This document shows positions 13,289 to 60,910 of a stretch of DNA of 64,000 nucleotides, piece by piece. The stretch is from a virus: IMG/VR virus record IMGVR_UViG_3300024324_000009, positions 96,001 through 160,000 of that record; one strand, written 5' to 3'. Below the pieces are notes generated by a model. It ran no database searches and was not told the DNA's origin. It saw only the letters and a program-made list of their open reading frames with translations. Made by a program: the position numbers and the translations under genes. Positions within the stretch are counted from its first letter, which is position 1, and the number at the start of each line of letters is the position of its first letter.

Positions 13289-14950
13289 TTAAGGCTCAGG
13301 AAAAGGTGGTAAATCAGGGCTATAATAACCTGAAATTACAGACCCCGGGTTGCCTTCACCGGGAAGTTCACCGTACCATTCATCTACCTCTATAATACAG
13401 TCAGTGACAACGATAGTATCATAAGCATATACCTTGTTGATTTTACCGTTTGCTCTTAGAAATGTCCCATCAGCTTTTTCATACAGTGTTCCTATTCGGA
13501 AAGCATCCTGATCTCTGATATCACAGTTGCCGATAAAGGTGCCAAAATTTACCGTATTATTACTGAAAAGTTCACACTTACCACGAAAAGTTCCTATGTT
13601 AATACTGGAGAATATAGTATATAATGTGTTATCTAAATATAAATTTAAAGAATCAGCCTTAATATTGGAGTACCTAGCGGTAATAGTGCCTCCCACAATA
13701 AGATCATTATTAGCGTTTTCTACATTTAAAGTTGAGCTCACTAAGTTACATCCATTATAAATCAGGCCTCCTAGGCCTCCTACAGTAATTGTACTGTCGT
13801 GACATTCTATGTTTTGACAAACAAGTTCACCACAAGACAATGCTGATATTTCGTTCATAACGATGTCATCATCCACATAAATAGTTTGAGGTGCGGAGAC
13901 TTTGGTATCATACAATTCAAGACTTGGGAAAACTAGATATCCTGCACCTCCTGCTGGTAGATCATAAGCCTTTATGTTGCTGTGGCTATACACGCAGTTT
14001 GTACTCATGCTGTCGTAATCAAACACTGGCTCCTGTAGATCAGGCCTTTTTACGGGTGGTGCAGACAACTTGGGCCGGTCCTGAGTACCGACCTTGTCAT
14101 AGGAAACTAAATCCATTTTATAAACTTCAAGGTCTTGAAATGTAAGCCTGTACGCTAGCGGTTGTACAAAGTATGCGTGATACCATTGTTCTTCAGCAGT
14201 CAAGGTGTTATTAATAAATCTAATTTTTTGGTTCATTACTGTTTGCTCTACAGGAATACCATCTTCTCTATTTGGTATTTTACTTCTGTCTTGACCATCA
14301 ATTATTAAATAGCATCCATAGTTTCGTGATTCCATAGGGTTTTCAAAGCTAGCAAAAAAAGCGGCATCCTCTTCTTCTACTGGAGGTGGAGAATCCAAGT
14401 TGATTGCAAAAAAGTTCATATTATTACAAAGTATAGTCCCTCCATTCACCCAAGAACATATATATGCTTCTCCTTTAGGTAGACCATAAAAACTTATTTC
14501 GCATTCATCTAGGATGTTAGTGTAAGATATGTTGTTATTTATGGCGTTCACAGCGTCCCAATATTCATAAGACTTGCTGTCTTCATAGTCTGATGCAGGT
14601 TCCCACTCACTACTTGTCTGTACTTCTCCTAAAGTCTCTGGGTCTGAAATACCAAACAACGTACTTGCTTGTGCCTCTGTTCTTAATTCTTTAGGAGTGT
14701 CTGATTCTTCTCCGTTTTCATCTTCTTCATAAACACATGATGGTACTGGAAACAACTTTTCCATAAAAGTTACACATGCTTGACTATTAGAAAGCCTATA
14801 TTTGTCTGTAAACGTAACAGACCCTCCTTGTATAAAACACCTATTTAAGTCTACAAGATCAAACTCTGATTTTACAGGAAGTGAGAAAGTGCAGTCCTGA
14901 TCTACCAAGTCTGTAACTGTGGTAAAATTTTCTACTTCAAATCTATCCAT
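13289..14950 (-). CDS. acidic hypothetical protein with beta-helix-like C-terminus, possibly virion
   Basis: 553 aa; G/N/I-rich short-strand periodicity in the last third; TAATG coupling. Confidence 0.55.
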   Translation of the reverse strand: MDRFEVENFTTVTDLVDQDCTFSLPVKSEFDLVDLNRCFIQGGSVTFTDKYRLSNSQACVTFMEKLFPVPSCVYEEDENGEESDTPKELRTEAQASTLFGISDPETLGEVQTSSEWEPASDYEDSKSYEYWDAVNAINNNISYTNILDECEISFYGLPKGEAYICSWVNGGTILCNNMNFFAINLDSPPPVEEEDAAFFASFENPMESRNYGCYLIIDGQDRSKIPNREDGIPVEQTVMNQKIRFINNTLTAEEQWYHAYFVQPLAYRLTFQDLEVYKMDLVSYDKVGTQDRPKLSAPPVKRPDLQEPVFDYDSMSTNCVYSHSNIKAYDLPAGGAGYLVFPSLELYDTKVSAPQTIYVDDDIVMNEISALSCGELVCQNIECHDSTITVGGLGGLIYNGCNLVSSTLNVENANNDLIVGGTITARYSNIKADSLNLYLDNTLYTIFSSINIGTFRGKCELFSNNTVNFGTFIGNCDIRDQDAFRIGTLYEKADGTFLRANGKINKVYAYDTIVVTDCIIEVDEWYGELPGEGNPGSVISGYYSPDLPPFPEP

Positions 14951-59332: not shown

Positions 59333-59554
59333 TTATTCTTTTATTGCTTCTATCTGAGAACACAGAATTTGTTTTTCTATTTCAGCGGTATGTAGATCAG
59401 TTTTAAGATCATCTATATCCTGTTGGGCTATAGTGTTTTTAACTATATTATTAGCGTTTTCATACTTAGTAATTTTTTGTTCTAAGTTTTTAGATATTAT
59501 TTTTTGTTGTTGGTATTTTAATTCTAGTATTTTTAATGTAGTTGATTCATCCAT
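59333..59554 (-). CDS. coiled-coil hypothetical protein
   Basis: 73-aa ORF coupled to the upstream gene. Confidence 0.55.
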   Translation of the reverse strand: MDESTTLKILELKYQQQKIISKNLEQKITKYENANNIVKNTIAQQDIDDLKTDLHTAEIEKQILCSQIEAIKE

Positions 59555-59759
59555 TGTCAGTAAAGTCTTTCTTTAACTTAGTTAACAAATTAGCACCTGC
59601 TGTTGGAAAGAAACAGGGAAATATAGAATGTGTTATTAATTTAAATGCAGTGACAAGTACAGACACAGCATGTCCACCAGCAAATATAAAATGCTGAGAC
59701 CAATTCATTTTATTATCATCCAAATGAGTATTCCACTCAGTAACCAAATAGTGTAGCAT
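59547..59759 (-). CDS. DUF6356-like protein
   Basis: HL....M...QH..FA.......H.IFP.FF; GGAGG RBS; GGTGTA at 59783. Confidence 0.7.
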   Translation of the reverse strand: MLHYLVTEWNTHLDDNKMNWSQHFIFAGGHAVSVLVTAFKLITHSIFPCFFPTAGANLLTKLKKDFTDNG

Positions 59760-59792
59760 AGTAATACCTCCATGCTACTTATTACACCAAAT

Positions 59793-60092
59793 TTAGTCAA
59801 CTTTTTTATAAAGATGTGCGTTATGATGCTTTCTGTGACAGTTGCTACACAATACGACACACTTATCTATCTCTTCAATTATTCTTTCAAATTTTGTACC
59901 ATTCTTTGTTGCCGTATTCATACTAAAAGACTTGGCACTTTCATCTACATGATGGAAGTCTAAAACTGCCGGATGATCTTCACCACATATAGCACATGGT
60001 ATTTTATAGGAAGTTATTAAATCCTGAACTTTAGCCTTACGTTCATTTGCTCTAGCATGAATTTTCTTCCATTCAAACTGTTGCTCCGACAT
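59793..60092 (-). CDS. small HNH endonuclease (99 aa)
   Basis: CAICG.DHPA.LDFHH, EI.KC.VLCSNCHR..H; start placed at MSEQQF behind AGGAG. Confidence 0.85.
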   Translation of the reverse strand: MSEQQFEWKKIHARANERKAKVQDLITSYKIPCAICGEDHPAVLDFHHVDESAKSFSMNTATKNGTKFERIIEEIDKCVVLCSNCHRKHHNAHLYKKVD

Positions 60093-60113
60093 GCCGTCTC
60101 CTAGTTGTATTAA

Positions 60114-60274
60114 TGGGTGGGGAGGATTTTCGGTATCACCTCCAACTTTCAGGGCAAGATACGTCAGTATTTCCCTAGTCGCACCACCTTCCAAACATTC
60201 AGACATTTGCCCATCATGTAAGGTCAGTGTACCTTGTGGTCTCTTGCTTGCTCCCACATTTCAGTCACCACCCA
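60114..60274 (-). ncRNA. structured ncRNA resembling manA/skipping-rope-type motifs
   Basis: closing stem TGGGTGG/CCACCCA; GTGACTGAA; AAGGT/ACCTT; GGGCAA/TTGCCC; GGTGGTGC; GAAAGTT then GGAGG/CCTCC hairpin. Confidence 0.65.
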
Positions 60275-60299
60275 GTAGCACAGGAGCGACCCGCACTAC

Positions 60300-60584
60300 T
60301 TATATTGTTTCTAATTCTCTAGTTTCCTTTAAATCTAACCATTGTAAGTCGTATACCCCACAGCAAAAGAACATCCAAATATTTAAATGTTGTTTACTCA
60401 TGTGGTTTTCATCGACAAACTTAAATTCCTTTTCTATATTAATATGTATCATACTCTCATCATAATGAAAGTAACTAATTTTGTTTTTCCTGCCATCACA
60501 AACCCATTTGGTAATTGGATGGTAAATTATTTGTGCCGCTAAGTATGCTATACCTAAAACGGCACAAACTATAAATCTTTTCAT
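60300..60584 (-). CDS. membrane-anchored hypothetical protein
   Basis: hydrophobic N-terminus; ATGA coupling. Confidence 0.55.
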   Translation of the reverse strand: MKRFIVCAVLGIAYLAAQIIYHPITKWVCDGRKNKISYFHYDESMIHINIEKEFKFVDENHMSKQHLNIWMFFCCGVYDLQWLDLKETRELETI

Positions 60585-60910
60585 TCTTCTTCTGCTGGGT
60601 CTGGTGCAGGCAAATCAGTTGGTACAGGTGTGATGCTTATGAGACTGCTCAGGTCACAGTTAGCACTTTCTTCCCTGTTAGGAACTGCCTTAGTCGCCAG
60701 TATCTCACCAGTAGCCTTGTCAGTTATTGTGCAAAGGTGAACACATTGTGTGTATCCATCGTTGCCTACGTTTGCTTCTACTAATTGGTAAGTTATTGAT
60801 ACGTTTGCGTCTCTGTTCTGCATCATTGTCTCCTGTTTGTTAGTTGTTATATCTATTATACCGGCATCTTCTAAGTTGTCAAGTACACCATTCTTAATTT
60901 TTGTTTTCAA
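60581..60910 (-). CDS. hypothetical protein
   Basis: 109-aa ORF; start uncertain. Confidence 0.55.
   Translation of the reverse strand: MKTKIKNGVLDNLEDAGIIDITTNKQETMMQNRDANVSITYQLVEANVGNDGYTQCVHLCTITDKATGEILATKAVPNREESANCDLSSLISITPVPTDLPAPDPAEEE

Follow-up and report, generated by a model that had tools for sequence, protein, structure and literature searches.

The DNA analysed here, referred to as the window, is a 64,000-nucleotide (nt) stretch, positions 96,001 to 160,000 of the IMG/VR virus record IMGVR_UViG_3300024324_000009, which is a complete record of 171 kb. The phage genome encodes rIIA and a ribonucleotide reductase, indicating that the phage is T4-like. The locus under study consists of a structured RNA at window 60300-60105 and the gene of a small HNH endonuclease that follows it. 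All features of the locus lie on the minus strand, and RNA position n corresponds to window position 60301-n. A 94-amino-acid (aa) gene with a hydrophobic N-terminus (60300..60584) is located immediately 5′ of the RNA and ends with a TAA stop codon at 60302-60300. The 11-bp hairpin P0 (60274..60300, RNA positions 1-27), delimited by covariation in 11 homologs, begins on the final base of this stop codon. It is followed by the 160-nt RNA core (60114..60273, RNA positions 28-187), delimited by a peak of sequence identity and by alignments to the Rfam family manA, and by a conserved 3′ tail (60105..60113), which the alignments show as a variable triplet (AUU or GCG) and then an invariant AAUACAA. 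The RNA is present once in the genome. The 99-aa HNH endonuclease gene (59793..60092) starts at ATG 60092, and a gap of 208 nt separates this codon from the TAA of the 94-aa gene.

In the list of open reading frames (ORFs), the HNH frame is stretched upstream to GTG 60257, giving a protein of 154 aa. This 154-aa ORF was searched against a protein collection and the contigs were fetched, which gave 11 distinct versions of the locus. The relatives came from marine samples (TARA and other ocean metagenomes), and all RNA homologs belong to one tight clade with a ligase identity of 88% at the amino acid level. The gene order was the same in the 11 versions: the 94/96-aa gene, the gap, the 99/100-aa HNH gene, a DUF6356 gene, a 73-aa gene (missing only in the L007-type contigs), and an ATP-dependent DNA ligase gene. 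The 94-aa gene was found solely in this clade, each time directly 5′ of the RNA. Neither blastn nor tblastn retrieved a relative of the phage itself from among the cultured phages, and locus searches based on the ligase found nothing.

The called HNH ORF is too long, and window 60300-60105 is an element that is non-coding, structured and conserved. In six other lineages, the frame ahead of the HNH start codon is closed after 14, 25 or 44 codons, and the alignment of the relatives across the gap contains indels of +1, −1 and −2 nt. The frame stays open in the window and in the L007 group, and peptides derived from the gap occur only in proteins more than 80% identical over the gap region. Gene callers give proteins of 99 or 100 aa in the relatives with a closed frame. 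In cultured phages, the alignments of the HNH homologs start at about residue 2-10 and do not extend beyond residues 2-98 of the 99-aa form. The closed frames, the indels and the extent of the homologs indicate that the first 55 codons are an artefact of an accidentally open frame. The sequence-only reading had regarded these codons as non-coding and had placed a ribosome-binding site (RBS), AGGAG, before ATG 60092; both claims hold, and the AGGAG lies at 60102-60098.

The core of the RNA is strongly conserved. Its identity to the window was 88–97.5%; the corresponding values were 75–93% (upstream gene), 64–84% (HNH gene) and 86% (ligase gene). Sliding comparisons over 40 nt gave a sharp-edged identity peak at the core in every pairwise plot, and the last third of the upstream gene dropped to 52–78%. 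At the other edge, just past position 196, identity fell from 90–98% to 30%, close to 60104. With a G+C content of 0.51 (vs. approximately 0.35), the stretch forms an island, and its transcript strand is G-rich. The minus-strand fold was better than that of shuffled sequences (z = −1.83, with 7 of 200 shuffles as good); the plus-strand fold was not (z = −0.25). The pair changes pass through G-U intermediates that exist on the transcribed minus strand only. The identity peak, the G-U steps and the fold z-score together indicate selection on an RNA of the minus strand.

The clearest evidence for a helix comes from P0. Among the 11 homologs, pairs 8-20, 10-18 and 11-17 change on both sides, and pairs 6-22, 7-21 and 9-19 change via G-U. 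The covariation score of P0 together with helix P4 was 0.301 compared with 0.180 for shuffled alignments, and none of 500 shuffles reached 0.301. P4 pairs positions 82-85 with 103-106 (60219-60216 with 60198-60195), and its pair 85-103 covaries (UA, CG, UG). The 11-bp 5′ hairpin that had been proposed from the sequence is thus borne out by compensatory pair changes, and P4 is an addition to the stems proposed earlier.

Outside P0 and P4, nearly every predicted pair of the core is invariant. The closing helix P1 (GGGUGG at 60273-60268 with CCACCC at 60120-60115) and the P2 hairpin (60258-60254 with 60239-60235) do not vary, and the P6 hairpin (60143-60139 with 60125-60121) adjoins P1. The core also contains the GUGACUGAA junction and the blocks AGGUGGUGC, UACUG and UUGCCC. 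Among the stems listed by the sequence-only reading, GGGTGG/CCACCC, TGTGG/CCACA and GGAGG/CCTCC are present and invariant, and AAGGT/ACCTT is broken in two relatives (G68A and C78A). The GGGCAA/TTGCCC pairing is invariant and competes with other pairings. Two putative kissing or pseudoknot pairs, GGGCAA/UUGCCC and GCAAG/CUUGC, are invariant as well; a third candidate, UACC/GGUA, was contradicted by contig L094, in which UACC is changed to UAAA and GGUA is unchanged. A box C/D or k-turn reading of GAUG..CUGA in P4 was rejected because G86 is A in five relatives. A tRNA or tRNA-like element was also rejected, with no ARAGORN call even under relaxed settings and no Rfam tRNA match.

By the criterion of Rfam, the RNA is not a member of manA (RF01745). 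No manA match was obtained for the window at gathering level, for pieces of 801 and 251 nt at E ≤ 10, or for the whole genome. The window copy, submitted as a bare 195 nt, was aligned to manA over its full length with 10.9 bits (E = 1). The copy in L094, the most divergent member of the clade with a core 88% identical to that of the window, scored 27.7 bits (E = 2.1 × 10−5). This match spans model positions 1-192, from P0 to the closing helix. P0 is aligned to model positions 1-16, the first hairpin of manA. A model built from eight fetched cyanophage manA RNAs (146–184 bits against RF01745) and run with filters off gave a full-length match exactly on the RNA in nine of nine clade loci, with scores of 6–10 bits (E = 0.02–0.5). 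The model of the clade itself recovered five of the eight canonical manA RNAs at E ≤ 1 (E = 0.017–0.68) at their Rfam coordinates, and four of these five were the best match of their locus.

The clade RNA and manA have the same order of blocks. The 5′ hairpin and the closing helix come first; then follow GUGACUGAA, a hairpin that AC..GU encloses beside AAGGU, AGGUGGUGC, UACUG, UGCC, and the 3′ hairpin. In both, the 5′ hairpin is followed directly by a strand of the closing helix, which is GGGAG/CUCCC in manA and GGGUGG/CCACCC here, where the two strands lie 150 nt apart. The manA junction GUGACUGAAUAAACUU, the hairpin enclosed by AC..GU and the UAAGGU correspond to GUGACUGAAAU, the pairing of 44-47 with 62-65 with A36 C37 opposite G69 U70, and CAAGGU; the J1/2 junction is about 5 nt shorter here. 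The central domain of manA, a 6-bp helix with hairpins carrying GUGGUG, GAAA and ACCA loops, is absent from the clade and is deleted in the L094 alignment. In its place there is one irregular hairpin of about 45 nt. Only AGGUGGUGC is kept, in another place, on the 3′ side of this hairpin instead of in a hairpin loop. The 3′ domain of manA comprises a hairpin with a CUGUAG-type loop and AAUGCCC, and then a 5-bp UUGGU..CCAA hairpin abutting the closing helix. In the clade, UACUG and UUGCCC are present and the last hairpin is kept against the closing helix (GGAGG, a 13-nt loop, CCUCC). This 5-bp hairpin has a loop of 11–13 nt in the two groups. The enclosing 7-bp stem of manA is missing, and the small P5 hairpin is lost in L094.

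The genomic setting is also alike. manA is almost confined to marine DNA and T4-like cyanophages (PMC2864571). Canonical manA RNAs are intergenic, lie on the coding strand right after one gene and end 16–63 nt ahead of the next, and gene callers over-call ORFs across them. The RNA of the window is likewise intergenic, on the coding strand and in a T4-like marine phage, in an arrangement like that in P-SSM2, P-SSM7 and P-HM2. It differs in that the next gene encodes an HNH protein and in that the host is probably not a cyanobacterium. On these alignments, the RNA is very likely a divergent branch of the manA class. The sequence-only reading had noted a resemblance to manA and to skipping-rope RNAs; the first stands as a distant relationship, and no match to the second was found.

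The HNH protein has CxxC pairs at C33/C36 and C82/C85, HH at 47-48 and the motif NCHRKHH, and thus an intact HNH (beta-beta-alpha-metal) motif with zinc-binding cysteines. It matches PHROG 2255 and 3106, annotated as "HNH endonuclease", with E of about 1 × 10−24 (7 × 10−25), and its Pfam HNH score of 19.1 is just below the cut-off of 21.4. The gene is free-standing between conserved genes, its distribution is mosaic, and there is no intron; a group I intron was rejected because the flanking ORFs are complete and separate, with the DUF6356 protein covering profile positions 6-62 of 64. In the L016-type contigs (L016-L023, L103, L113) the HNH allele has 58% amino acid identity and another RBS, next to an RNA that is 95–97.5% identical and within flanks that are otherwise 90–100% identical. 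Homology between the alleles ends after AAUACAA (about 60104) and resumes at a hairpin past the HNH stop codon (about 59790). An empty site, lacking the HNH gene, was not found at any of the clade loci.

The more distant homologs of this HNH protein are found mainly beside tRNA genes. Homologs with 40–53% identity lie inside tRNA arrays at 10 of 12 sampled loci, which include Flaumdravirus, Felixounavirus, Gilsonvirus and Certrevirus phages, a Klebsiella vequintavirus, an Enterobacter phage and three uncultured contigs. These genes have the orientation of the tRNAs, usually start 15–100 nt past one tRNA and end at the next. The HNH gene of the window resembles those of cultured phages, such as wV8 gp051, KIL4 gp166 and Jada gp120, in sequence, with 41–53% identity across the nuclease domain, in having the orientation of the RNA gene and in starting within the same distance of it. 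It differs in that those proteins are 132–142 aa long, have about 45 extra N-terminal residues and are encoded among tRNAs, whereas the protein here has 99 aa. Neither the window nor the whole 171-kb genome has a tRNA gene according to ARAGORN. A T4-like phage of 171 kb without any tRNA gene carries an HNH gene of a subfamily otherwise seen in tRNA arrays. At the eight canonical manA loci, no HNH homolog or tRNA gene was present within the fetched regions, and no such RNA was present at the loci of the distant HNH genes. The exchange of alleles beside an unchanged RNA, the manA loci without the HNH gene and the HNH loci without the RNA show that the HNH gene is independent of the RNA.

A comparable arrangement is known from T4, in which SegB cleaves a tRNA gene in a related phage and promotes the inheritance of its own region (PMC2330249). 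Both loci have a small selfish nuclease gene between stable conserved RNA-coding sequences in a T4-type phage, and both are mosaic. The difference is that SegB is a GIY-YIG enzyme whose cleavage and homing were shown by experiment, whereas the HNH protein here is known from its sequence and its neighbour is not a tRNA. From the sequence comparison, the HNH gene looks like a SegB-style free-standing homing nuclease gene, and in the simplest reading it would use the invariant RNA-coding DNA as landing site and homology arm. The swapping of alleles and the placement of the homologs in tRNA arrays agree with the earlier suggestion of a homing nuclease at the RNA locus.

The explanation that we consider the most probable as a whole, with somewhat better than even confidence, is a manA-class folded RNA at 60300-60105 (minus strand) with an unrelated homing-type HNH gene beside it. 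The element would encode a compact non-coding RNA, about 190 nt long, that folds autonomously; it would comprise the 5′ hairpin, which covaries, and a core of 160 nt with several helices, which a 6-bp helix closes. This RNA would be a divergent, sub-threshold relative of manA that has retained the outer shell and has exchanged the central three-hairpin domain for one irregular hairpin. The RNA would be co-transcribed with its neighbours, and strong selection acting on the RNA itself would maintain it. Canonical manA suggests, by analogy, that it may act as a folded particle, possibly a homo-oligomer held by loop-loop contacts, and not as a sensor for one downstream gene. The HNH protein would be an unrelated homing endonuclease of the tRNA-array type, lodged at the invariant 3′ edge of the RNA. 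Its alleles would have replaced one another by recombination, with the RNA and the downstream hairpin as homology arms, resembling SegB in the T4 tRNA region.

Several results weigh against this explanation. The z-scores of the whole-RNA fold (−1.6 to −1.8) are modest, and most core helices never vary, so that the core fold is putative; as the homologs come from one tight clade, covariation cannot reach these helices. The manA score of the window copy is low, no clade member reaches the RF01745 gathering score of 55.2 bits, the E-values from the reciprocal models are weak, and the nine clade loci do not count as independent observations. The oligomers are known only in vitro, from one preprint and for canonical manA, and the loops used in their assembly (L3-L9) could not be mapped onto the variant. 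No promoter or terminator belonging to the RNA was found, which lends some probability to a purely cis-acting role.

The cis-acting role is the strongest alternative and has precedent, as Weinberg et al. graded manA in 2010 as a cis-regulatory element and probable riboswitch, upstream of varied genes (PMC2864571). A phage paper of 2023 still termed its role unverified. In such a leader or riboswitch, the core would sense a ligand or condition and gate the translation of the next ORF, with the pyrimidine strand CCUCCCCACCC pairing either within the fold (P6, P1) or with the downstream Shine-Dalgarno sequence. The distance from the end of the RNA is indeed 12 nt to AGGAG and 22 nt to the ATG, which lie on the same strand with no terminator between; canonical manA RNAs also end close to the next start codon; and the closing helix, the conserved junction strands and the anti-Shine-Dalgarno-like sequence are features of this kind. 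However, the regulated gene would be a selfish HNH gene whose alleles and RBS have been exchanged (CUAGGAG vs. AAAGGAAUG) while the RNA stayed constant. Nothing is conserved after AAUACAA, so there is no conserved expression platform. In the eight fetched loci, canonical manA is followed by unrelated genes (purL, a carbamoyltransferase gene, gp32 or tiny ORFs) and preceded by regA, pstS or gp23, and this range of neighbours is wide for a metabolite sensor. No report of a ligand was found. We therefore give the regulatory role a minor share of the probability, about that of one chance among a handful.

According to a 2026 preprint, manA RNAs self-assemble in vitro, in the absence of protein, into a 60-subunit icosahedral cage, decamers and an octamer, as seen by cryo-electron microscopy; the assemblies are held by loop-loop contacts, and the core fold is conserved and the peripheral helices differ (preprint 10.64898/2026.07.01.735769). 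By analogy, the clade would fit this pattern of a conserved shell with a replaced periphery. We speculate that manA-class RNAs, including the compact 160-nt variant, may be autonomous stable RNA genes that are kept and processed like tRNA genes and are not riboswitches, and that in infected cells the variant assembles into an oligomer or cage of its own, made of RNA only. This is a tentative proposal, to which we give clearly less than even weight. If true, it would explain why an HNH gene of the tRNA-array subfamily homes next to the RNA in a phage without tRNAs, and the neighbouring HNH gene would be independent genomic evidence that phages treat the RNA as a stable RNA gene and not as the leader of a single gene. 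Small stable phage RNAs whose role is unknown, RNAC and RNAD, occur in a homing-endonuclease region of the T4-type phage as well (PMC3014915, PMC9697503); no relation in sequence or structure is claimed.

The likeness to manA could also be due to chance or convergence, in which case the RNA would represent an unrelated, clade-restricted new class. The window copy is without a significant Rfam match, its central domain is different, and pattern scans of IMG/VR, the GTDB genomes and the JGI metagenomes gave no intermediates. Exact or gapped DNA patterns had no true match in IMG/VR, a search that needs exact words and would miss distant relatives; the 68 and 6 pattern matches there were coincidences in coding sequences. 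A 19-mer gave two true and nine chance loci in the JGI metagenomes, and two patterns gave 0 and 21 matches in the GTDB genomes, the latter all by chance. Against this stand the full-length colinear match of L094, the reciprocal model matches at exact coordinates, several blocks in the same order, including the 9-mer AGGUGGUGC, and the similar virus type and habitat. We consider such a coincidence unlikely.

A third alternative, in which the element acts as DNA, appears improbable to us. The stretch would be a tract that the HNH protein recognises or that is co-converted, or else a hot spot of recombination or a replication-origin-like site, and repeated homing, instead of RNA function, would have kept its copies alike. 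The mosaic of the locus has breakpoints at the edge of the element, the transcript strand is rich in G, and homing is known to co-convert flanking DNA (PMC2330249). Yet conservation is far lower in the HNH gene than in the element, and the flank downstream has not been homogenised. The adjacent P0 varies freely and keeps its pairing through G-U steps that only an RNA has. In addition, homing sites are tens of bp long, not 160 bp, and the element is related to an RNA family.

The sequence-only reading had also raised the idea that the RNA and the HNH protein form one ribonucleoprotein or mobile unit, an RNA-guided or RNA-scaffolded nuclease like HEARO/OMEGA. The likeness is a structured RNA directly upstream of a gene with an HNH domain, and the two are strictly adjacent in all clade members found. 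IscB, the protein of such systems, is large, combines RuvC with HNH and uses the RNA that it binds as a guide. The nuclease here is a minimal HNH domain of 99 aa without RuvC or an RNA-binding domain, its alleles exchange independently of the RNA, and the pairing of RNA and gene is conserved in one clade only. Neither a RuvC+HNH protein, nor constant linkage, nor a variable guide was found, and the RNA has no Rfam match to HEARO. The 5′ hairpin, for which the sequence-only reading had proposed a check for guide-like variation, changes by paired compensating substitutions that keep the stem, unlike a free guide. RNA homologs unlinked to HNH genes had been named in advance as the refuting observation; with eight manA RNAs lacking the HNH gene within the fetched regions and distant HNH relatives lacking the RNA, the idea fails, and we consider it very improbable.

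The open frame in the window and the L007 group and the length of the homologs from cultured phages (132–142 aa) might suggest a genuine 154-aa ORF in which the stretch extends the nuclease at its N-terminus; this reading is already refuted by the relatives, in which the frame is shut in six lineages and shifted by indels, by the lack of any homolog matching the extension, and by the strong RBS ahead of ATG 60092.

If the RNA is a divergent manA, as the alignments suggest, the Rfam threshold overlooks this branch of the class. manA has been an orphan RNA since 2010, and RNA-only cages have now been described in a 2026 preprint. The clade would be a naturally reduced manA variant, probably outside the cyanophages, that shows which parts are indispensable, and it provides a construct of 160–190 nt for structural and assembly tests. 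The locus is also another instance of a structured RNA buried by gene callers in an over-long ORF. In the records of P-HM2 (L150:758-932) and P-SSM4 (L152:741-914), small deposited "hypothetical protein" ORFs overlie the canonical manA RNA.

Further features of the locus were recorded. A perfect 12/12 match to the sigma-70-type consensus (TTGACA, a 16-nt spacer, TATAAT; 60855..60882, minus strand) is located within a 109-aa gene, about 580 nt upstream of the RNA. From this consensus match, it is a candidate promoter of a transcript comprising the 94-aa gene, the RNA and the HNH gene. A T4 late promoter across the stop codon was rejected, as the relatives do not conserve it.

After the HNH stop codon, a hairpin GUAGCAU/AUGCUAC (59753..59778, minus strand) forms the downstream edge of the swapped HNH cassette. 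Its loop contains the GGAGG RBS and its 3′ arm the AUG of the DUF6356 gene. Translational-brake hairpins have been described for T4 e, soc, 49 and I-TevI (PMC3014915), and by analogy this hairpin is likely to be such a brake. The hairpin and P0 have AUAAGUAG...GCUAC in common, which could be a trace of the insertion that delivered the RNA and HNH unit; a search of the genome for a family of AGTAG..CTAC hairpins found none. Compared with window 59333-59759, the contig region L007:3496-3830 encodes a 92-aa DUF6356 protein and no 73-aa gene, with an identity of 0–28%, showing that the mosaic reaches past the HNH cassette.

Within the HNH gene, a block of about 40–50 nt, CGEDHPAVLDFHHVD (59945-59998, minus strand), has 92–100% DNA identity between alleles that are otherwise 48–70% identical, and 86% identity over 50 nt to Pseudomonas phage PHB09. 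Gene conversion or an unusually strong constraint on the motif could account for this block. In most canonical manA RNAs of cyanophages (L147, L149, L150, L153, L155), a T run follows within a few nt of the 3′ end, which hints at termination or a defined 3′ end; the clade has AUUAAUACAA at this place. One IMG/VR contig that was matched by chance in the pattern scans, L157, carries a PhotoRC-II RNA at 13516-13617 (58.5 bits), which identifies it as a cyanophage.

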